Of a DNA stretch of 64,000 nucleotides, positions 2,993 through 54,768 are shown piece by piece. Under the pieces are notes generated by a model. That model worked only from the letters and a program-made list of their open reading frames with translations. It did no database searches and was not told the origin of the DNA. This DNA comes from Dictyostelium discoideum (taxonomy: Eukaryota): contig CM000151.3 of assembly GCA_000004695.1 (NCBI GenBank), positions 8,096,001-8,160,000 on the forward strand. Reading direction: 5' to 3'. How positions within the stretch are numbered: position 1 is the first letter of the stretch; every line of letters begins with the position of its first letter. Made by a program: the position numbers and the translations under genes.

Positions 2993-5621
2993 GACAAAAA
3001 AAAAAAAAAAAAAAGATATATTGAAATACCATTTTTAGCAGTATCTTCAAAGATTGATTTATCATTAATAGGAAAATCATTAGAATCATTATCTTTTTTT
3101 CATCCAAATAATTTTACATTTGGCGGCTTATTTCCAATAATTTTACCATCCAATGAAGCATTTAAAAAATTGGAATTTGTTAATGGAAATATTGAAACAT
3201 TTGATTTTTCATTATTTACAAATGTTGAAACATTATCATTAGAAAGTAATTTAATGTCAAATGATTTTCCTTCAAGTTTCAATAGAACAATTCATAGAAA
3301 ATTAAAACACCTTGATATAAGTAATAATAAAATGACAGGTACAATTGATGATTCATTTTGTCAATTAGAAATCATTGTTACAAATAATTCAATGACAGGT
3401 TTAATTCCAACTTGTTTTACATGTTTCTTTGGATTACCAGAAATAAATTTAGAAAGATATTTTATTGGAAATAATTTTATAAATTTAAATACACCTTCTT
3501 CACCATGTAAGTGTTTTATTTTTTATTTTTTATTTTTTATTTTTTATTTTTTATTTTTTTTTTTTAATTTGTTTTTTTTTACTAATTCCATTTATGATAT
3601 ATATATATATTTGTATTTAAGCAATTATCATTCCAAATATAGTTTTTAATAATACTTCAATTATTGAGGGTATTCCAATAGTTTTTTATGAATATTTAAT
3701 ATTTGGTGAAAATTTAGGTGGTAGTTGGGTTCCATTTACAGCTGTCTCTGATTCTGTAGGAACACCAATGATTTTTTCAATGATTGAGTCAAATAGTTTA
3801 TTTAAAGTATTTTGCTATGGAGAGCCCAAGTTTCCTTTAAACTTATCATACAGTAAGTCTAACCCAAACTATACATTTACTTTATCATTGGGAATACCAC
3901 CAATATTAAATTTAGTAGATTGGCAATCAAGTACAACTGATTTAGTAATAGATGGTTCATTCTTTACATATAATGGTTCTATAATTAATATTACAATTGG
4001 TAATGAAAATTGTTTCGTTACAAATACAAATTTTTATCAAATTAAATGTAAACTTTCAAATGTTATAGATCAATCATTAGAGGATATTATATCATATATT
4101 ACAATTGGTAATTTTAAAACTCAATTCACTTTAAATCCAGGTGTAATAAATACAATTTTAAATTGTACTGAAAATTATAATGATTGTAATGGTAATGGTA
4201 ATTGTTTATCTGATATTGGTAAATGTAAATGTGATTCAACTCATCAAGGTGATGATTGCTCAATCCCATATATAGAATGTTTAAATGATTGTAATAATGT
4301 TGGTCAATGTAATAATCAAACTGGTATTTGTTCATGCCCAATCACTCCTTACGAATGGATTGGTATTGATTGTTCAATTCCATTACATACAATATCAGCA
4401 GTTTCACCAAGTGATACCAATGGTGGTAGTGCTTCGATTTATGGTTGGTTTAGTAATAATCATACTGATCCACAAGTTTTCATTGGTAATAAACAATGTA
4501 TACCAATTTTTAGTATATCTGAAAGTGAAATTATTTGTAAAGCACCACCAGGTACAGGTTTAAAATCAGTAAGTGTAATTCAAAATTCAATCAATGTAAC
4601 ATCAAAAGATATTTATCAATATTATTCAAATGATAAACAATGTCCAAATCATTGTACATCGACATCAAATGGTATTTGTAATACAACAACTGGATATTGT
4701 AATTGTATCGGGAGATGGAGCGGTTATGATTGTAGTTTATATTCAAATCCAAGTGGTGGCGATAATAATAGTGGAATACCAGGATCAAATACAACAATAG
4801 ATGGTAATACTGGTAATACAAACATTACAAATCAACAAACAAATTATCAAATTTTAATTACAAAATTAATAGAGATAGATTTCAATGGTAATCAAATCAA
4901 TGAATATCTTTTATTAAATAAATGGTCAATAATTTCAAATATTAGTAAAACAGTTTACACATTCATTCAATCAATTCAAAATGATATATGTAATATTACA
5001 TATACAATTGAAGAAGTTAATAAAGATAGAGATGTATCATTTGCAGGTATTAATTTTAAATTAACAAGTGGATCAGTTAAAATGACAGTATCAATTGAAA
5101 ATTATCAATATTCAAGTAATTTAAATACATTACAATTACAAATGAAATCAAGTGTAAATGAAATTCAAACAAATAATGAAATGAATGATTGTAACGATGA
5201 TCAAATTGAAATTGATAGTACACCGAACCAAGATAATTCATTAAATTATATAACAATTAAAAAAGATGCAAAAGTTTTAAATGGTAGATTTATAGACAGA
5301 ATCGAAAGTGATGGTATATCAACATTTATGCAAACTGTGTTAGTATCAAAATCAAATGATTCAATTACAGTTGGTATGAATTTACCTCATTGTACAAAGA
5401 AATGTTTATTAGATCCTGACTTCTCTGTATTGATTAGTCCTGAATTCATTGATGAATGTGATGATAATAATCGTGAGTCATGGTTTTTACCAGTTGTGAT
5501 CGCTGTTCCAGTTGGAGGTCTAGCTGCAATTATTGCTATTGTTTTCATAATTTACAAAAAAAGATTTGTTGAAGCCCCATTAAAAAGAAAATTAAAATCA
5601 CTTAGAAATTATAAAAATTAA
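2024..5621 (+). pseudogene. Paralog A of an LRR / EGF-like / IPT-TIG single-pass membrane protein family; apparently disrupted; exons approx 2024..2565, ~2659/2693..2942, 3016..3506, 3622..5621
   Basis: Same four-exon architecture as the intact paralog C at 10401..13993, with near-identical nucleotide sequence in exons 1-4. TCA->TAA in exon 1 (2414..2416; C has aattCatatcc, A has aattAatatcc). A 1-nt insertion just after the predicted exon-2 acceptor creates an in-frame TAG (2656..2658). Exons 3-4 are fully open: signal peptide, LRR-like NxL repeats, CxCDSTHQGDDCS EGF-like, ISAVSPSDTNGGSASIYGWF IPT/TIG, TM LPVVIAVPVGGLAAIIAIVFIIY. Confidence 0.5.
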
Positions 5622-36945: not shown

Positions 36946-38724
36946 TTAAATATTAATTGATATCCAAGTAAAATTATAAATTTGTGGCATATATTGATGA
37001 GAGATTAAACTCCAATCATTCCAATTAAATGGTGGACAATCAGAAGTTACAGTTGGACCATTACGAGCAACAGCAGTAAAAGAATTTACCATATCATAAT
37101 TAATTGCTTTTCCATCGATACCACCATGAGTACCATGATAAAACCAAGAGTAAATTGGATTACCACTTGGTAAAGAACCACCTTTGATATCGAATCTAGC
37201 ATTGATTGAATTACCAGGATAACCCATACTAAATGGGTCAGTTTTATATTGATTATAATCGATGATATTCATCATATCTTGTAAAGTTTCAAGTTTTGAA
37301 TGATCTCTACGGAAAATATTAGCACGTGGATTATATTCATAGGTGAAGAGGTCACCAAATTTCTCGACATAGTATGGGTAACCAAGGATATCAAACACCT
37401 CTTCAAAGTAAGGTCTATTATAACTTGGCCAATAACCTTGCTCCCAAAGTGTGAGTGTTACATCGGCAGCTTGATAACCACCTGGATATTGTTCAACGAT
37501 CCAAAGTAAATCCGATTGTAATTCAGTTGAATAAGGTGTAAACAATTTATAATCCAATACTACAAATTGAATATTATTTGTACCACTATTATTCTCAACA
37601 AATATTGATACCCATTGGAAACCATTGTTTGCCAATCTATTAGCCACTAAGTTTCTAACCCAATACATAAATGATTGTGCATTAATTTGTTGATATAAAG
37701 TTTGATTTAAAATTGTATTTAATGTTTCAGTTAAATGTAATTTCGATGGTCTAATTTGATAGAAATCATCAATTGATACCAATAAACCTGGATATGATGA
37801 GAATAAAGTTTCACTACCATAGGGTGTTGATGCAACTGGTATATTGATTCTCTTGTAAATTCTAATCATTACACTAAAATCTGCCCAACTTGTATGAGCT
37901 GACATTAAATCACTACAATTGTTTGTTAATTTAATAATTGATGTACAATGTCCAGTTGTTGCCATTAACTGTTCAACTTCTTTTCTATCCATTGGTATAA
38001 ATTCATTGTTTGGTGTGGTTGTTAATGTAACAATATCACCCATATCACCATAAAGATTAATCATATATATTTCAATAAAAGTTTTTTGATAATCTTCACC
38101 TGCTGCTGCATTGTAACCTTCATATAAACCAATTTGTTGACTCATTGCATTTCTAATTTGAATCCAATATGGATCTGTAGTTGATGATGAATTCACTCTC
38201 TCCATCATATATTCCCAATTATCAGATACAAATGTTAATGTCTCGGTTGGTATCTCCTTAATATTAGAGGTATTGAAAAAACTATTAAAATAATTTCCAG
38301 AGAATTTATAAATATATTCCCATGTTAAATAACCTTCAAGATATCCTGCTGCTTTAAATGCAATATTATCTGAAACTGTTGAAACTGTTTCAATTGATAA
38401 TTTACCCCAACCATCTTTATTCATTTCATCTTTAAAATATCCCTTTTTTTTTAATTAAAAAAAAAAAAAAAAATTAAAAATAAAAAAAATTAATATAAAT
38501 TATTTATTAATATTATTTTTTAAATTGGTCAAAAAAAAAAAAAAAAAAAGACATACCCATGCAATTGAACCTGGTATTTGTTTACCTTGGACAACTTGGA
38601 ATTGTGATGTAAGTGAATAATATTGAACATCTGAACCACTATCACTACTACTATCACTACTCGATAAAGAGTAGGAATTTGAAATTAAAAATACAATTAC
38701 AATTAATAAAATAAATAATTTCAT
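36946..38724 (-). CDS. Phospholipase B-like protein (LAMA/PLB family), secreted; exons (minus) 38724..38557 (signal peptide), 38442..36946
   Basis: Signal peptide MKLFILLIVIVFLISNSYS. Mature region GYFKDEMNKDGWGKL...HTSWADF...WxxY has a typical PLB-like (PLBD) fold signature and length (about 555 aa). Intron TGG|GTATGT...aaaaag|GG, phase 0. Confidence 0.75.
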
Positions 38725-39905: not shown

Positions 39906-40498
39906 CCAACTTTCTTTTTAATAAATTATTTAATTTATTAATTACTTAATGTTAATAAAAAAAATATTAATTAATTCTTACTTTTATGGTAATATCGAAT
40001 CTCTAAAATTAAATGGTGAGATTATTTTTTTTTTTTATTTTTATATATATTATTTTTTATTATTTTTATTTTTTTTATTTTTTTTTATTATTTTTTTATT
40101 TTTTTTATTTTTTTTGGAATGAAAAATAAAATTATTAAATTTGAAATTTATAGTTTTTTTTTAGGTTTTTTTTTTATTTATATTAAACTATATAAATTAT
40201 ATTATATTTTTAATAATTTTCTTATTTTATTTTTTAAGATCTCATTTTTTTGAAAAAAAAATACAAAACAAGATTGTGTTTGAAAAAAAAAAAAAAGGCA
40301 CATCTTCCAATTTTTATTCTTAGTAAAAAATAGGTCCAAAAAAAAAAAAAAAAAAAAAAACAAATTAAATAAAACAACACACAAATTAAAAAAAAAATTT
40401 TTATTTTATTTATTTATTTTTTAATTTGTATTTTTTTAATTCATTTTTTTTTTTAATTTATTTTTTATTTATTTAATAACATATAATTTTAAATAAAA

Positions 40499-40957
40499 AT
40501 GACAAGTAAATATTGTTGCCAACATGATGAATTTTCTTTAAGAAAGCTTAAAAAAAGTGAAGATTTCACTCTTTACCTTGATGAATTACTAGATCAAGAT
40601 GAGTTTCTAAAGATTCAGCCTGGTTACTGCACAGAGGAATGTAAACAAAAAATGAAGGAGATTTATAGAATTACATTCGAACGTTATATTGAGACTATAA
40701 ACAAATATTACAGTGACAGCAGAATTTTTGAATATAACTTGGGAAAAAATCCTCGAGGATGTGATATTTGGATGTATCGAGAATTTTTCAGTACTCCACC
40801 CCCTATCTCTCCCCAAGATGAATATGCTAGAATGGTCATAAAAGCAATGAAAGTTGGTATTAAAGATGGAAAGCCTGTTAGATTATGTGAATTGCCACCT
40901 GGTGTACAATGTGATTTTGATGCAAAAAACCTACCTGATTCTGAAGAAGATGAATAG
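40499..40957 (+). CDS. Hypothetical 152-aa protein with atypical codon usage (Cys-pair rich: CCQHDE...CTEEC...C..PPGVQC)
   Basis: Intact ATG..TAG ORF. Codons such as CAG CCT GGT TAC TGC ACA GAG and CGA GGA TGT are unusual for this genome. No family recognised by eye. Confidence 0.45.
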   Translation: MTSKYCCQHDEFSLRKLKKSEDFTLYLDELLDQDEFLKIQPGYCTEECKQKMKEIYRITFERYIETINKYYSDSRIFEYNLGKNPRGCDIWMYREFFSTPPPISPQDEYARMVIKAMKVGIKDGKPVRLCELPPGVQCDFDAKNLPDSEEDE

Positions 40958-41149
40958 AAAAATAAGTGTTAATTAAATAAAAAGAACTGTTTTAAATTTT
41001 TTTATTTTATTTTACTTTTATTTTTTTTTATAACTCTTATATAAGAGAAGTAGTTTATTTTTTTTTTAATTTTTAATATTTTTTTTTTATTTCTTTTAAT
41101 TATTTTTTTTTTTCTTTTTTTATTTCTTGCACCTCTTTTAGGTGCAAAG

Positions 41150-41365
41150 TTACCATATATATCGTTGAGCTTCTTGTGCAGTTGCAAAGGTTCTAATTAG
41201 CTCTTGTTTTTCTCTAAGTCTTTGCAATCGTCTTCTTTCACTTTCTTCTTGCATCAACCTTCTTCTTTCTTCTTGTTCAGCCAATCTTTGTTGTGTTTTT
41301 TTAATTTTTATTAATTTTACCGTTTCAGGGTCTGCTTCAATTTCTTTTTTTTGATGGGCACCCAT
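41150..41365 (-). CDS. Hypothetical 71-aa charged coiled-coil ORF (QRLAEQEERRRLMQEESERRRLQRLREKQELIR)
   Basis: GC-richer ORF within the island. No homology assignable. Confidence 0.25.
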   Translation of the reverse strand: MGAHQKKEIEADPETVKLIKIKKTQQRLAEQEERRRLMQEESERRRLQRLREKQELIRTFATAQEAQRYIW

Positions 41366-41399
41366 CGTTTTTTTTTAAAAAGTAAACCTAATGATTTAT

Positions 41400-41880
41400 A
41401 CATGTTTATATTTAATAATTGAGAATTTTTATTTTATGACATTGGTTTTGAATTATTTTTAAAAAAATCATTTTAAATTTTCTTTGATTCGTTACATTTT
41501 TGTTTCTATCTAATGATCATTTTCCAATGATTTTATATTAATGGTCATTGGAAAATCCTTTAGCTAGGAATTCTATAGAGAATCATTGAGTAAATAATGG
41601 TTTCTATAGGAAATCTTTAAACAACCATTAAAAATCGTTGATTTTTCTTTGGCTCAATTTTTAATAGTTTTCTATGTAATGGTCACATCTATACCGTTAT
41701 CAATCTAAAACCATTGGAAATAACAATATCTAATGATTTTCAATAAAGTTCAATAAAATTATAAAAAAATGAAAATAATGGATTTCATTAAAAGAATTTT
41801 TTTAAAATAAGATTAAAAATTTTATTTAAAGAATTTTTTTATTGATTTCCATAAGGAAACCATTATATGATTTTTTTTTT
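41400..41880. repeat. Array of degenerate about 20-bp repeats containing CCATTGG / AATGGTC cores
   Basis: tccaatgattttatattaatggtcattggaaaatcc; aatggtttctataggaaatc; aaccattaaaaatcgttgat; taatggtcacatctataccg; aaaccattggaaataac; ggaaaccattatatgat. Followed at 42037..42072 by (GAAATTAATAAC)3 flanked by gatttgatttct direct repeats. Confidence 0.5.
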
Positions 41881-43056
41881 TTGTTTTTTTTTTTTTTATA
41901 AAAATGAGAAAACTATTGGTACTTTATTATAATTAAAATAAAATAAATATTAATAAATGTAAAACTTTATAAAATAAATATTATTATAATAAAAGTAATA
42001 ATAAGGATAGATTGATTTGATTTCTTGAAATTAATAACGAAATTAATAACGAAATTAATAACGAAATTAATTTGATTTCTAAAAAATGTTTATTTTTTTT
42101 TCTATTTTTAGTGTAAAAAAGGGGGAAATAATTTAATTCATCAGTGAGCTGTCATTTTTAGTTTTGAACGTTTTGCATCATCAGATTCCAATGTTTGACT
42201 ATAAATATTTTCTTTACTTTTAATCTCTTGTTTAATTATTCTCTATCACGTTTTGGTTTCATTAGACCCTTGTTATATTCCAATGCCGATGATTCATTAA
42301 TACGGTCAAACTCTTTTTGAAAAGGTGTAGGTGGTACTTTCTTTAATTTTTCGGTGAACAAAACCGATGATGATTTATCACCAGTTATAGTTTTTGAAAG
42401 TTTTTTCCTATCGATTGGCATCTCCAATGTTGAACCTTTTTTTTATAATTTTCTTTTAAATCCATTCAAATTCATTTTTTTAAAAAAAATTATTCAATCA
42501 TTTTTTTAAAAAAAAAAAAATTTAAACATTAATTAAAATTATATTTTAGAAATAAAAAAGAAAAAAATGGAGCTTTTAATTCCATTAAGTTTATTGGGAT
42601 TATATTTATTTTCAGGGACAAGAGATTCAGTTCATAAGGGAGAAGTTAAAGATGACTTGAAAGAGAAACCTATAAAAGTTAATTTTAATTTAACTGACTC
42701 TACAAAAGTTGACCATAAAACTCATCTCAAACAGTACAGTTCATTAAAACCAGGTGACACATTGGAAATATTATAACAAAAACATTTAGATCACTCTACG
42801 AAAGATTTAAAACACCCAGTATCCATTATCAATGATAAGTCTGACAGTAAAATTCATCTTAAACGAACATACCGGAAAAGTTAAAGTTAAATTTATTGAT
42901 CATACAATTCGTAGTGATGTTAGACCAATCTCATTTGGAATTAATAAAAAATAATTTATTTTCTAAAAAAAAAAAAAAAATTCTCTTTATTATTTATTAT
43001 TTATTTTTAAAATTAGTTTTGTTTTTTTAAAAAAAAAAAAAAAAGAAAGAAAAAAA

Positions 43057-44300
43057 ATGGGTATCAGTGATCAAATCAATAGTAATTTATCAAGTCAATC
43101 TCCATTTACTGTAAGTACAAACCCAAGTGATTCAATGTTTCTTCCAACAAACAGAATTGCAAAAACAGCAGATTGGAAAGAGGAGAAAAAATATTACTAT
43201 CCAAAAGAATCGATTCAAAGTATTTATGAAGGTACAACAGTTCGTATCGTAATCGATAAACAAAATGGTAGACTTTATGGTTTGGAAATGGTAGTTGAAA
43301 TTGGACCATTGACTGCAAATGGTGCTACATTTACACGTCTCTGTAGGGATGTTGCTCATTCGATGGCCTATAGTGTTTCAATATGGAATGGTAATAATGA
43401 AATTCATAGACTTCATATGGATCATGAAAGAATTGAGATGGTTTTAACTAAATTAAAACATGAAAGGGACATGGAAGATAAGATGGCCGGTTACTATGAT
43501 GATGCGACACGTACTGCATTGGGTGCAACAAAACAAAAATTAATTTTTGATTTGAATTTCTTTCATACTGTCCACACTTCTGATGCACTCTATTTAAATG
43601 CCTGGCATTGAAATACACTTATCAAATTAAGATCAATCCTTTAAGAAGATGGGTAGAAACCGATGGTACTGATCCAAAAGCTAATGATTTCAAAGTTTAT
43701 CTTCGTGCTGATATTATTCATACACCACAGGATGAATATCGTATAGTTCATAATACTATCAACACTGGTACTGGTATTTTTTCACCAATTGAACATACAG
43801 AGATGAAAGAGCGTGTAGTACTCAACGTTGGTGAATCAAAACATTATGTTCAATTAACAAACATTATTGGTAATGGTCGTTCTTATTTTGTTGTTTTAAG
43901 AAGATTGGCAGACACTGAAAATCCAAAAGCACCAAGATATGATGATTTCATGCCATGGGAAAATATGCGTTTATTACATGCCGGTAATAAGGAAGTTCAT
44001 TTACCACATAATAATATGATGGATTGTTTTAAACATTTAAAGCATCGTTTTCATTTTGATGCATCCTACAATGATGATAAATCTCCAAACAGTATGAATA
44101 TTTATGGCTTCAGTTTTTCAGCTAATCCTATCGATGTCAAAAATCGAACAGGTTGTTTTTCATTCTCACAAGCAAACAATCTTCAATTGGAAGTAACAAC
44201 AAAAACTCTAACTGAACCATGGGTACTCGATTTTTATACAGCATCCACTCAAATCATTCAACAATCTGGTAACACAGCAAAAACAATTCTCCATTATTAA
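43057..44300 (+). pseudogene. NCLDV-type (double jelly-roll) major capsid protein homologue, split by a frameshift at about 43600..43611 (ORFs 43057..43611 and 43608..44300)
   Basis: ORF1 QNGRLYGLEMVVEIGPL..VSIWNGNNEIHRLHMDH..KLIFDLNFFHTVHTSDALYLNAWH* resembles PBCV-1/FV3 MCP R(N/S)GD(L/Y)I..(V/L)V..L / IGGQRIDKHYNDW / PLIFFF..GLALPLIALQYHEVK. ORF2 continues the motif (EIK)YTYQIKIN after a frame change. C-terminal IYGFSFSANPIDVKNRTGCFSFSQANNLQLEV resembles HLYAYAFSL..PSGSCNFSRIDNA.L.L of NCLDV capsids. Combined length about 414 aa. Confidence 0.7.
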
Positions 44301-44440
44301 AAAAAAAAATAAAAAAGTATAAAAATAAAATTTTTTTTTTTTTTTATTTAAAATTGATAAAGAATTTTTTTATTAAAAATTAAGTCTATCGTTTCGTCGT
44401 TATCTTCTTTATCTTCGTTATCGTTGTCGATGGCATTGGT

Positions 44441-45443
44441 CTATAGATTATCTACTGATTTTTTAAAGATTTTTTTCTTTAGTTTTTTCATTTCTTTCTT
44501 TTTAGTTTTTTCCTCCTGAATTAACCACCACCCAGGGCATACTGAATCAGTGGGTAATGAACCCCTCTTTATATCAAAACGAGGCAAATCTTTAAATTGA
44601 TGGTATAGATTCGTATACTCATAAGGAGTGTATCTAAAGATTTCAAATTCTTTAAAAGAACTACCGATAGTAGACTTGTGTTTGGATGATAAAAACAAAT
44701 TTTTAAATTCAAACCATTATCACCTGGCGATAAAACTTCATGAAGTAATAATGTTTCTTTAAATTCCCATAGAAATATGTGATGATTCCTATCATTTTCA
44801 TTACAAACTCTACAATTCATTAGCTCCCGTTTCCTTAGAAGATCGATTAAAACCTTCCAATGTTCATCAATTTTCTCAAGTTTATGATTAAGAAAAAAAG
44901 ATTCCAGAGCAATTTTTATATGATGTAGCCGATTATCAAATCTATAAAGATGTTCTCAAACTTAATACAGTAAAAATTGGAAAGGATTTGGATGGAAAAC
45001 AATGTTTTATTCATGAGTTTGGTTCTTATGGTGACCGTATGGTTGGAGCATTGGTTGGTAGTGATCTCTTGGGTGGTTATAGTACTTTCTTTGGAATAAT
45101 TGTTTCGGTTTTCATAAAGAATAAGGACATTTCATTAAAATAATTCCTTCCATTGGTTAAAATCGATAGAGATTATACTGTTCCTGAAATGTTTGTTCTT
45201 TACAAAGAACTTAGATCAACTGGTCAATTTGCAAAATCACCAAATCTTTACAAATTTTATTGTTCATTACTTTGGCTCTTGGTAAATATTCATGAACAAC
45301 TTAGTGACGATGGTAAAAATGGTTTCGAATCTCAAGCGATCAACTTACCTCTTTGCAATTATATATTGGTGAATCTAAACACAGCGATTCCTTCGAAATT
45401 CTTTATTTTTTTTTTTTTTTTAATAACATCGCTCAATTTATAA
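44441..45443. other. Decayed GC-richer ORF fragments on both strands between the MCP relic and the tRNA (44441..44820 minus, 44905..45140 plus, 45153..45443 plus)
   Basis: Overlapping frameshifted minus-strand ORFs (CRVCNENDRNHHIFLWEF... / ...YTPYEYTNLYHQFKDLPRFDIKRGSLPTDSVCPGWWLIQEE). Plus-strand fragment ...GKQCFIHEFGSYGDRMVGALVGSDLLGG, reminiscent of a minimal nucleotidyltransferase hG[GS]..G....SD motif but with the second Asp missing. Followed by KIDRDYTVPEMFVLYKELRSTGQFAKSPNLYKFYCSLLWLLVNIHEQL. Confidence 0.3.
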
Positions 45444-45486
45444 AATTCTTTATTATGTTTGGTTAAAATTGAAAAAAATTATCAAA

Positions 45487-45559
45487 GGGGATGTAGCTCA
45501 GATGGTAGAGCGCTCGCTTAGCATGCGAGAGGTAAAGGGATCGATACCCTTCTTCTCCA
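45487..45559 (+). tRNA. tRNA-Ala (anticodon AGC), 73 nt, with a non-canonical T-loop
   Basis: GGGGATG acceptor with G3:U70. A box TAGCTCAGATGG. Anticodon arm CTCGC-TTAGCAT-GCGAG. T-arm AAGGG-ATCGATA-CCCTT (A54; B box GGGATCGATACC deviates from GGTTCGANTCC). 3' acceptor CTTCTCC (T6.T67 mismatch) plus discriminator A. T6 terminator follows immediately at 45560..45565. Confidence 0.8.
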
Positions 45560-45587
45560 TTTTTTGGGCCGACGATATGAGATCGCA

Positions 45588-45598
45588 GGTTCGATTCC
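45588..45598 (+). promoter_or_regulatory. Extragenic B box (ex-B) downstream of the tRNA gene
   Basis: Perfect GGTTCGATTCC about 29 bp downstream of the tRNA 3' end. Dictyostelium tRNA genes frequently carry such an external B box, which is also used for TRE3 targeting. Confidence 0.55.
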
Positions 45599-45831
45599 TA
45601 ATTTTATTATCAACAAATTTGAAATGTTTATAAATTTAACTTTACTCGAAAAGAGTTCAATTCAAACTTTAATAATATATGATTTGTAATAATAGTATAT
45701 TTAAATTATCTACTAAAAATTTCAATTTTTATTCATTAAAGACTATTTTAGTACCAATTAATAATATTACTTTTATTAGTTCATTAGATCAAGCATTTTA
45801 TAAATTTCAAAAATAAATAAAAAATAATAAT

Positions 45832-47566: not shown

Positions 47567-48624
47567 TTAAATATTTAATAAATTATTATAACATCTAATG
47601 ATTGAATCTCTGGAAGTTAAATAAGCTTGATTTCCAACGATATTAAAAGAAGTTACAACATCAGTATCAATACCAGATAAAGAGGTTATGATTTGATTTT
47701 TATCTAAATCCAACAAGAAACAACAACCATCACCAGAGGTAACCCAAATTGAATTTGCAATCTTTGAATTGGATGAATTTGCCTTTATATGATGAATTGG
47801 TGAGTTTGTAAATTGTAATCTACAAAAAGGTGAATTTAAATTTCTCTTATCCCAAAAGTAAATGGAACCATTATGGTCACCACCAATTATATAATTCTTA
47901 TGTACATGACAAGCATTGAATGCAACTGATCTTGTACTCTTTTCACCAGATTGTACAACATTCATTTGTGATATCATATTCTTTGATCTCAAATCAATTG
48001 CTTGTAAAAACCCTTCTTCTGCCGCTATAATCAATGTTTTACCATCTGTACCCACTTCTCTTTCATCAACTTTATTATTATCATTACTATTTGTAGTGGT
48101 GGTAGTTGGAATTGAGTCAAGTAATGATGATGCTATAAAACTATCATTAATTGGTCTTGATAATTTTGTTAAATTTGAAATGATCGATGATGTTGGTATA
48201 TCCCATAATTTACTTGTACCATCACGTGAACATGATACTAAATTTCTACCACGATCAACCAATGATGCCGATGTTATACCACCGATGTGTCCGACCAATG
48301 TAGAGGCGCATGTGCCTTCTATAGCATCCCAAATCTTTAATCTACTATCAGAGGAACCACTTAGTATAACCCTACCACTTGGGAAAAACATTGCCAAATC
48401 AACATCACCAACATGACCATCTAATTTTCTTCTAATTTGACCATCACCAGTTTCAAATACTTCCAATGTACCATCAGTACTACCATATACACCCAACTCT
48501 CCTAAATGACTAACACCCATTGATGTTATTCTTTTCTTTCCACCTGAAACTTTTAACTGTTTCTCTGGTGCATATATTTCAATACTATATTTATCATTTT
48601 CAACTCTAATATTATTTTTATTTT

Positions 48625-53299: not shown

Positions 53300-54768
53300 T
53301 TAAAATTTATTTCTTGAAATCCAATCACCAGCAATTGGACCTAATCTTTGATGATCAAAACCTAAAGCATCAGTTAAAGATATTGAATAAGGAACAATTT
53401 CTTTACAAAGTTCTAAGATTTGAATTGAAATTGATTCAGATTGTTGAGGTGAGATGAATTGATATTTTAAGAACCAATTATCACGATCTATAATATTTAA
53501 TACATAGAGTGAAACTAAAAGTTTGAGAGCATTTCTAGTGTTTTCATCAGGATAATTGTTAACAGCGGCAATGAATTTATCGAGGATAGTTTTTTCAGTA
53601 TAAGCAACACCTAAACGAACGATATAGGTACCATTATCATTCCAAGCGTCCATAATTGCAGAACCTTCAGAGACGGAATCACTTAATTTCTCAGTTACAT
53701 ATTGAATGGTTTGATTTAATCTTGAATTTAAAGCTTCCAATAAGAAATCGAAAGATCTAATGTAATTTCTATCAGTTCTTTGTTTTTGTTCATTTGAAGG
53801 TTGTTGATAATCTGTTGGTGGATTCTTTCTAGATTCGGATAACATGAATTTGGCAACTTGTTGATATAATAGTATATTATCACCTTCGAAAGTTGTATAG
53901 ATTTCAGTCTCTGATTTGAAATTACCAATTAAATTCTCACTCAAGAACCCTTGACCACCACAAGCCTCTCTACACTCTTGAAGACAATCACGAGTTGACC
54001 AAGAACTATAAGCCTTTAAAGCCGATGCTAAAATATGAATTTCCTTCTCCTTTTTCTCTTTTTCAGACAATAAATCCAATAGATAATTATTTGAGAAATG
54101 GGTGGCGTAGGTGTTTGCCAAATGTGGAATTAAACGTTTTCTATGCGAGGAATAGGATATTAATTGTTTCTCGAATTTTGGATCTGAACCTTGGAATTGT
54201 TTTCTAGAGAATGAATATCTAATTGCCGTGGTCAAGCCAACTGAATTAAATGCAACTGACCCAATTGAAACAATGTAACGACCAAGTACCAATGCACCAA
54301 TGGTATTGGCAAAACGTTTATTTGCAGGATTAATTGGTGATGTGTAAATGCCTGCTTTGTTAACTCCACCAAATCTATTCAATAATTGGTCTCTTGGTAT
54401 ATGTAAATCTTTAAACATGATTCTACCATTATCAACACCATTCAAAGCCATCTTTACACCACAATCTCTAATATCAACACCCTTCACTAGACTACCATCA
54501 TCATTTCTAATTCTTGCAACAAATGCATGAACTCCTTCCATCTTACCACTAACTTTTAATTGTGCCATAATAATTGTATGTGTTGCATTCTTTGCTGATC
54601 CACCGATAAAATATTTTTGACTTGTAATAGTTGGTGAATTTATAATAAATTCTTCTTTATCATGATCATATTCTGCAATAGTTTCAATTGATTGTACATT
54701 TGATCCATGTCCTAATTCTGTTAATGAAAAACATCCAATAATTTCTAATTTTTCTACCTCTATATATA

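Follow-up and report, generated by a model that had tools for sequence, protein, structure and literature searches.

The capsid pseudogene and its lesion

The stretch of DNA considered here (the window) comprises 64,000 nucleotides of chromosome 2 of Dictyostelium discoideum (contig CM000151.3, positions 8,096,001 to 8,160,000, of assembly GCA_000004695.1, referred to as AX4), and all coordinates given without a locus name are those of the window. At 43057-44300 it contains two adjacent open reading frames (ORFs), which a first-pass annotation made from the letters alone had taken for a homologue of the major capsid protein (MCP) of the nucleocytoplasmic large DNA viruses (NCLDVs). The analysis established that these ORFs are a frameshifted, full-length, double-jelly-roll MCP of the Nucleocytoviricota (NCLDV) type. 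They are embedded in the remains of other viral genes, and the region from 40.4 to 45.4 kb is very probably a decayed fragment of an endogenous DNA virus, with the two ORFs as its MCP gene; its donor was more likely a small, mriyavirus-like virus than a giant one. Endogenous relics of DNA viruses are a well-known kind of object in protists.

The capsid gene was compared with related loci in other dictyostelids, of which L002, L003, L004 and L009 are from 'Dictyostelium cf. discoideum', L008 is from D. dimigraforme and L010 is from Acytostelium subglobosum. Its features in AX4 are:

43057 to 43611, plus strand: MCP pseudogene, N-terminal ORF (frame 1, 184 aa), which takes in most of the first jelly roll and stops at a TGA made by the frameshift
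43602 to 43604, plus strand: frameshift lesion, a 1-bp deletion in a small complex substitution, placed by nucleotide alignments to L002 and L003
43608 to 44300, plus strand: MCP pseudogene, C-terminal ORF (frame 3, 230 aa), with the last part of the first jelly roll, and with the second

The two ORFs lie in different frames and sum to 414 aa, as the first-pass annotation had described, and the three peptide blocks that it quoted are all present. An intact orthologue of 414 aa (P0001), 95% identical to the AX4 product, is encoded by D. cf. discoideum, and the AX4 N-terminal ORF is 96% identical to residues 1-182 of the intact protein (tblastn). At the lesion AX4 reads 'TG' where the intact copy reads 'ACA', outside any homopolymer run. 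The whole gene differs from the intact copy by 34 substitutions (9, 10 and 15 at codon positions 1, 2 and 3, respectively) and by one 1-bp deletion, which causes the change of frame. An uninterrupted MCP coding sequence is absent from AX4 and is found in the orthologues of D. cf. discoideum and Acytostelium (416 aa).

In an independent assembly, GCA_054883475.1 (L012), identity is 99.8% across 20.5 kb and reaches 100% across 40301-45700, which shows the lesions to be real and not errors of the reference. As explanations of the frame change, an intron and a programmed frameshift were both rejected, since the two ORFs overlap by 4 nt and the intact orthologue is colinear with them without a gap. 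The broken frames of three neighbouring genes, described below, are a further argument against both.

The composition of the ORFs, which had been said to differ sharply in GC content and codon usage from every neighbouring host gene, does not set them apart. Their GC content is 0.32-0.34 and that of third codon positions (GC3) is 0.19-0.22, compared with 0.21-0.33 and 0.08-0.21 in the neighbouring host genes of the window. Three host genes are nearly equal to them in GC/GC3, namely those at 53300-54568 (0.328/0.21), 47567-48520 (0.325/0.18) and 36946-38424 (0.305/0.18), and other 1-kb windows also attain a GC content of 0.32-0.34. The capsid ORFs are at the top of the host range, inside it, and the main visible contrast with the host proteins is their lack of Asn/Gln-rich low-complexity tracts.

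Identity of the capsid protein

The family to which the capsid protein belongs was revealed when P0001 was run with HMMER, exhaustively, against 1.84 billion representative proteins; a word-indexed protein search had given almost only Dictyostelium proteins. The scan yielded 40 relatives, nearly all 400-440 aa long and aligned end to end, the family as a whole ranging from 403 to 441 aa. When a profile of this family was compared with the PDB, the best match was the MCP of Emiliania huxleyi virus 201 (EhV-201; 1.8e-25), followed by MCPv1 (6.8e-22) and MCPv3 (1e-16) of Paramecium bursaria chlorella virus 1 (PBCV-1). MCPv4 (v1, v3 and v4 together range from 7e-22 to 5e-14) and Vp54 (6.6e-12) of PBCV-1 were at the weaker end, and the profile also matched the Faustovirus protein and p72 of African swine fever virus (ASFV), the latter at 3e-4.

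A second profile hidden Markov model (HMM) was built solely from the 34 non-dictyostelid members, all metagenomic, to avoid circularity, and was searched against the 869 six-frame segments of the window. It matched the two ORFs only, and in colinear fashion, with profile positions 3-178 in the first (E 6e-34) and 181-400 in the second (E 5.5e-38).

Structure prediction led to the same result. The AlphaFold2 model of P0001 (pLDDT 87.4, pTM 0.87) folds as two jelly rolls in a single chain and is superposable on solved NCLDV MCPs. In a Foldseek search of the PDB its best match was again the EhV-201 MCP (E 3.5e-23, TM-score 0.74), and the ranking continued with PBCV-1, Singapore grouper iridovirus (SGIV), Faustovirus, ASFV p72 and vaccinia D13. 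In BFVD the best named matches were NCLDV MCPs as well, and the MCPs of virophages appeared far down the list.

The Pfam search that the first-pass annotation had recommended as a check succeeded at the level of the family and not at that of the AX4 sequence. Among the 38 aligned members, 19 match Capsid_N (best 3.7e-11) and five match Capsid_NCLDV. The AX4 sequence scores 19.4-19.9 bits against Capsid_N (E 6e-4 for the N-terminal ORF; 19.4 bits and E 8e-4 for the joined 414-aa product), below the gathering score of 24, and has no match to Capsid_NCLDV, the C-terminal half being without any Pfam match; P0001 scores 23.6 bits against Capsid_N. In a PDB sequence search the C-terminal block weakly matches PBCV-1 MCPv3 (residues 342-401, E 0.036), and it aligns with the conserved 'Y.F.....G..NFSR..N..L' block of that protein. 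Taken alone, these Pfam and PDB tests of the AX4 product make the capsid assignment only suggestive; it is the family profile and the structure that are decisive, and with them the homology to NCLDV MCPs stands as first proposed.

Chance resemblance, contamination or an assembly artefact would be conceivable, given the many spurious ORFs of AT-rich genomes and the sub-threshold Pfam matches of AX4. This explanation is refuted for practical purposes by the E values obtained with the independent metagenomic profile, by the position of the locus between host genes in a chromosome-scale sequence, and by its recurrence in the second assembly and in three further species.

Compared with the known NCLDV MCPs (PBCV-1 Vp54 and MCPv1-v5, EhV-201 and iridovirus; PF16903, PF04451, NCVOG0022), the dictyostelid proteins are alike in the double-jelly-roll fold (TM-scores 0.70-0.78), in colinear profile similarity over the whole length and in a C-terminal 'Y.F...P....G..NFS...N..L' block. 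Their length is similar to that of the short chlorovirus MCP paralogues (400-437 aa). Unlike the known proteins, the dictyostelid family is only 10-16% identical to any solved MCP, and its single sequences do not exceed the Pfam gathering scores; the copy of AX4 carries a frameshift and lies in a eukaryotic chromosome, and the nearest relatives are on contigs of about 36 kb instead of giant genomes.

The viral relic and its relatives in dictyostelids

Searches of the window with the genes of the related elements (tblastn) showed that the relic spans 40.4-45.4 kb of the window and is a mosaic of element-gene remains. Host genes are present on both sides, namely a phospholipase-B-like gene on one and genes for tRNA-Ala, a WD40 protein and a lipase on the other. 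Apart from the MCP, its components are:

40499 to 40957, plus strand: intact ORF of 152 aa, 82% identical to L002_1951_2406, with paralogues in L003
41156 to 41365, minus strand: ORF of 71 aa that matches the N-terminal part of an element ORF of 101 aa (L002_2530_2835 and L003_2101_2355, tblastn 91%)
42131 to 42475, minus strand: relic of the N-terminal ~117 codons of a gene for a ~770-835-aa protein, with deletions of 8 bp and 1 bp; the remainder has been lost (~5.4 kb missing relative to L002)
42567 to 42939, plus strand: relic of the 127-150-aa gene that always directly precedes the MCP, interrupted by a premature stop (42774-42776) and by the loss of 2 bp at ~42860
44351 to 44883, minus strand: relic of the C-terminal residues 293-470 (178 codons) of a gene for a VLTF3-like late transcription factor, with a 1-bp deletion at ~44678 and an in-frame stop
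44874 to 45397, plus strand: relic of an element gene for 366-408 aa, covering residues 85-259 (tblastn: L003_13105_14205 at 95%, the paralogue in L004 at 34%)

The 152-aa ORF probably marks the left portion of the fragment; a blastn block at 40398-41603 matches L002 1862-3077 at 84%. In the relic of the 127-150-aa gene, identity is 98% over residues 1-98, after which the frame changes (tblastn). The VLTF3-like relic has lost its N-terminal 292 codons by deletion, and a deletion joins it to the relic of the 366-408-aa gene, of which L010_10818_12044 is the Acytostelium homologue. Relative to L002, the boundaries of the blastn blocks indicate deletions of ~5.4 kb and ~1 kb in AX4. Frame-breaking lesions are present in four adjacent genes, the MCP and three neighbours, within a colinear block of 2.75 kb. 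Because the MCP and its neighbours are broken or truncated, the AX4 locus is a non-functional relic. The suggestion of integrated viral DNA, as opposed to a host protein family, is supported by the four broken genes and their viral neighbourhood; the other suggestion of the first-pass annotation, a captured viral gene, is not supported, given the broken frames of the MCP and its three neighbours.

A related possibility is that the capsid gene was domesticated (exapted) to serve the amoeba. Some past constraint is suggested by the dN/dS of 0.37 between AX4 and D. cf. discoideum, the 414-aa ORF has been kept intact in the sister species, and both dictyBase and NCBI annotate a gene at this place (P0003). 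Nevertheless, exaptation is very improbable: the D. discoideum ORF is frameshifted and its neighbours are destroyed, identically in two assemblies, the annotated model is a chimera assembled from pieces of the relic across a tRNA gene, and the intact copies are present more than once and in company with other viral genes, as expected of a virus and not of a host gene.

The annotated gene in question, DDB_G0277467 (P0003, 314 aa, window 43804-45816), has a model that opens at an internal Met of the C-terminal half of the MCP. Its later 'exons' are pieces of the VLTF3-like and 366-aa-gene relics, and the last one is beyond the tRNA-Ala gene. DDB_G0277467 is a chimeric annotation artefact over pseudogene fragments and should be re-annotated.

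The tRNA-Ala(AGC) gene itself (45487-45559) begins ~90 bp past the right end of the relic. No tRNA gene is located beside the copies in L002, L003 or L004, so this proximity is probably a coincidence and not the trace of tRNA-targeted integration. Repeat and inverted-repeat searches around the relic gave A/T low-complexity matches only, without terminal repeats, and a scan for bacterial promoters and terminators, irrelevant to this eukaryote, gave nothing above shuffled sequences.

Related elements, intact or in several copies, were found in D. cf. discoideum, D. dimigraforme and Acytostelium, with genes for MCP, A32-type ATPase, VLTF3-like protein, YqaJ and dNK, the MCP itself occurring as a copy in D. 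dimigraforme (L008) and as a fragment in D. purpureum. D. cf. discoideum has at least two MCP copies, 99.6% identical and 55 kb apart, at a repeat-rich contig end (L002 and L003), together with a truncated copy elsewhere (L009) and a divergent lineage with an MCP of 31% identity (L004). The order of a ~770-aa gene on the minus strand, a ~129-aa gene and the MCP is kept in all six dictyostelid loci (L002, L003, L004, L008, L009 and L010). The dictyostelid MCPs form one clade in 200 of 200 neighbour-joining bootstraps; inside it the L004 lineage groups with Acytostelium, which suggests two old lineages.

In the L002/L003 lineage a 470-aa VLTF3-like gene directly follows the MCP, and the divergent L004 lineage retains VLTF3-like, 366-aa and 456-aa genes. 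The intact VLTF3-like orthologues P0053, P0054 and P0055 match positions 95-164 of the Pox_VLTF3 profile with E values of 1.7e-5, 5.6e-4 and 1e-4, respectively. The 470-aa protein has the E value of 1.7e-5 and a score of 25.0 bits, equal to the gathering score; the other two orthologues, which are 43-45% identical to it, score 22.5 and 20.1 bits. A profile of the VLTF3-like proteins had no match in a PDB sequence search.

The element of Acytostelium subglobosum occupies a 25.8-kb contig and has an intact MCP of 416 aa with 150-aa and 835-aa genes upstream. It further encodes a packaging ATPase of the Pox_A32 type (E 7.9e-10; 39.1 bits against a gathering score of 22.8), a nuclease of the YqaJ type (7.7e-24) and a deoxynucleoside kinase (dNK; 9.5e-11), and the MCP, A32, YqaJ and dNK genes are contained within 11 kb. 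Two further NCLDV core genes, the A32 ATPase and VLTF3, are accordingly present across the elements, none of them intact in the window itself.

Each related locus was read over ~20 kb, with 10-kb flanks around the MCP, and seven loci were scanned for core genes. An alternative is that the relic derives from a Polinton/Maverick, a classical polinton-like virus (PLV) or a virophage, one candidate being the 'VC20' MCP group. Dictyostelids are known to carry Polintons (PMC3671162), PLV/Polinton MCPs with only distant similarity to iridovirus MCPs have been reported in Acytostelium subglobosum and Heterostelium album (PMC7805220), and the size of the elements is within the PLV-to-mriyavirus continuum of a 2026 preprint. 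However, no protein-primed DNA polymerase (pPolB) or RVE integrase was found within 10 kb of the MCP in the six dictyostelid loci, where reverse transcriptase and integrase matches belong solely to LTR or DIRS retroelements, and the VLTF3-like and Pox_A32 genes indicate Nucleocytoviricota. The similarity to NCLDV MCP profiles is also strong (1.8e-25) and not marginal, and virophage MCPs appear only far down the structural list. A Polinton-type origin is thus quite improbable. Bellas & Sommaruga 2021 (PMC7805220) described VC20, a PLV MCP group, from four amoebae, one of them Acytostelium, with the genes arranged as in Polintons. No such arrangement is present in the loci considered here; their MCP family may or may not coincide with VC20.

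Several other features of the elements deserve mention. The gene for the ~770-835-aa protein, transcribed away from the MCP, is found at 42131-42475 in the window, 7017-9423 in L003, 4469-6976 in L010 and 12228-13550 in L005. The Acytostelium homologue of the protein matches at E 1e-85, a 37-kb metagenomic virus encodes a 440-aa match (E 1.7e-20), and neither the long nor the 440-aa form has a match in Pfam, PHROGs or the PDB. These matches mark the gene as viral and conserved. In PHROGs, none of ten proteins of the elements had a match.

Small ORFs of one family (126-161 aa) recur several times within the elements, at 1951-2406 in L002, at 260-745 and 4491-4871 in L003, and as several members of 126-129 aa in L008; the AX4 member is the intact 152-aa ORF at 40499-40957, which is the same in the second assembly. 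On the L002 contig, the 390-aa protein P0004 (ACTFIY_000802, D. cf. discoideum) shares its first 52 residues with the MCP and continues with unrelated, charged, coiled-coil-like sequence; the explanation is a duplication of the 5' end or else a chimera in the gene model.

Retroelements of the long terminal repeat or DIRS-like type, with RVT_1, RNase H, integrase and tyrosine recombinase genes, are present in or beside the elements (L002 16861-19235, L008 17438-21116 and L004 873-1489), so the surroundings of the elements are rich in repeats, and one element is located at the end of a contig. A tyrosine-recombinase (Phage_integrase) match near one copy was considered as an integrase of the element and rejected, being part of the DIRS-like retroelements.

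The donor virus and its relation to known viruses

Outside the dictyostelids, the relatives of the capsid protein are metagenomic, and the longest contigs that encode them are strikingly uniform, at 35.3, 35.7, 36.4, 37.2 and 38.8 kb. These contigs have the MCP, the 440-aa homologue of the ~770-835-aa protein and the A32 ATPase (8e-37) in common with the dictyostelid elements. They also bear a primase large subunit, YqaJ and a D5-like superfamily 3 (SF3) helicase (DUF5906), the last of which is limited to the metagenomic relatives and was not seen in the loci of dictyostelids. In each metagenomic contig ~20 kb were read, and they showed no polymerase.

The first-pass annotation had named a giant virus as the source, and a true giant virus (an NCLDV of at least 100 kb) could have integrated and then been almost wholly deleted, leaving a few core genes. 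MCP, VLTF3 and A32 are all NCLDV core genes, the structural neighbours of the MCP all belong to giant or large viruses, and the element copies of D. cf. discoideum run past the 20-kb loci that were read. Against this, the nearest non-dictyostelid relatives are on contigs of 35-39 kb and never on larger ones, the MCP is short, and Pfam matches in the 10 kb on either side of the MCP revealed no DNA polymerase B (PolB), RNA polymerase (RNAP) or mRNA-capping gene at the seven loci. The DUF5906 SF3 helicase is confined to the metagenomic relatives, and the Acytostelium genes are packed within 11 kb. A giant endogenous viral element is a region of at least 100 kb dense in NCLDV core genes; the window has a remnant of ~5 kb between host genes, and the loci of sister species were read over 20 kb. 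A giant virus is an unlikely source: given relatives on 35-39 kb contigs and the lack of large-virus core genes near the MCP, the donor was more likely a small (~35-40 kb), mriyavirus-like relative of the Nucleocytoviricota.

According to Yutin et al. 2024 (PMC11253617), mriyaviruses are relatives of giant viruses with genomes of 35-45 kb, include the amoeba virus Yaravirus, and have an NCLDV-type MCP, A32 and VLTF3, the last being diagnostic of Nucleocytoviricota even at this genome size. The metagenomic relatives, at 35-39 kb, belong to the same size class as the Mriyaviricetes (Yaravirus of Acanthamoeba and the Pleurochrysis endemic viruses; 35-45 kb), and the combination of NCLDV-type MCP, A32 ATPase and VLTF3 is alike, as are the PDDEXK-type (YqaJ) nuclease and, in the metagenomic relatives, the SF3 (D5-like) helicase. 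One cultured member of the class has an amoebozoan host. Unlike the dictyostelid elements, which are integrated and multi-copy, Mriyaviricetes have been described without integration genes or endogenous copies. The dictyostelid elements may belong to the class, given their gene set and the size of their metagenomic relatives. Pfam scans of 60 ORFs found no HUH endonuclease, VLTF2, RuvC or Mriya_1, 48, 50 and 51, markers that were defined by custom profiles and structure comparison (PMC11253617). Gene set and size also fit the 'NCLDV-like PLV' groups of Bellas & Sommaruga 2026.

A number of points weigh against the explanation that is favoured here. The Pfam scores of the AX4 product remain below threshold, and the structural evidence comes from a model of the intact orthologue P0001 and not from the AX4 sequence itself. 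The VLTF3 assignment depends on matches at or below the Pfam threshold, and the AlphaFold2 model of the VLTF3-like protein, made from a three-sequence alignment, has a pLDDT of 38 and is unusable. No integrase belonging to the element was found in the dictyostelid loci. With regard to size, the 35-39 kb are the lengths of the longest contigs and not of verified genomes, and the dictyostelid elements were read with 10-kb flanks that do not reach their termini, which makes a larger parent genome possible.

Under the favoured explanation, a DNA virus would have integrated into chromosome 2 of D. discoideum, between the phospholipase-B-like gene and the tRNA-Ala/WD40 gene. The MCP of the parent virus would have formed the trimeric capsomers of an icosahedral shell. 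The frameshift has inactivated the AX4 MCP, and the neighbouring genes (the small upstream gene, the ~770-aa gene, the VLTF3-like gene and the 366-aa gene) have been broken or truncated. The parent would belong to a dictyostelid-associated virus lineage that persists, intact or in several copies, in D. cf. discoideum, D. dimigraforme and Acytostelium subglobosum. In this account the identity of the capsid gene, its pseudogenisation, the conserved order of the neighbouring genes and the presence of intact copies elsewhere are demonstrated, and the small size of the donor and any remaining capacity for virion formation are inferred.

Similar relics are found among the endogenous NCLDV-like and PLV elements of amoebae, such as the MCP insertions of Acanthamoeba (PMC5203793, PMC11702301) and VC20 (PMC7805220). 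These are likewise DNA-virus capsid genes in amoebozoan genomes, many of them pseudogenised by stops or frameshifts, and likewise indicate undiscovered virus-host pairs. The present elements differ in their hosts, D. discoideum and its siblings, and in a gene set without pPolB or RVE. MCPs in Evosea were mentioned without detail by Bellas et al. 2023, and Maumus & Blanc 2016 noted one D. discoideum protein with homologues in chloroviruses only, which may or may not be the product of this gene. Neither DDB_G0277467 nor a D. discoideum MCP is mentioned in any paper that the literature searches brought up.

Dictyostelium is a major model for host-pathogen biology, and to our knowledge no virus of it has been described. 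The MCP relic and its intact multi-copy relatives show that a DNA virus lineage has repeatedly entered dictyostelid germlines, and the intact copies in a sister species and in a distant slime mould indicate that social amoebae probably have their own, unrecognised DNA virus lineage. Host-less metagenomic contigs of ~36 kb, with giant-virus-type capsid, packaging and transcription genes, are thereby tied to a tractable host group, a link that bears on the debate over small relatives or ancestors of giant viruses.

The intact copies of the sister species could perhaps still produce virions. The near-identical copies of D. cf. discoideum have an intact MCP and VLTF3, and in Acytostelium the MCP and A32 are intact. 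On this basis a tentative proposal, held with somewhat less than even confidence, is that dictyostelids are natural hosts of unrecognised small (~35-40 kb) integrating viruses related to Nucleocytoviricota, and that the elements of D. cf. discoideum and Acytostelium are perhaps virion-competent. If so, Dictyostelium would gain its first virus and the uncultured 'mini-NCLDVs' would gain a host.

Two further contigs add to the picture of gene order. In L001, a metagenomic contig of 35 kb, the gene directly downstream of the MCP (4389-5459, minus strand) encodes a protein with a TFIIB-like zinc ribbon, weakly similar to the Dictyostelium VLTF3-like protein (pairwise E 2e-4), and the MCP/VLTF3 neighbourhood may therefore be conserved beyond dictyostelids. 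L011 (Logan ERR13950607, 12.6 kb) has a VLTF3-like gene 43% identical to that of Dictyostelium, together with dNK, a 446-aa gene and YqaJ; its gene order equals that of the Acytostelium element, and it probably represents another host or lineage of the same virus group.

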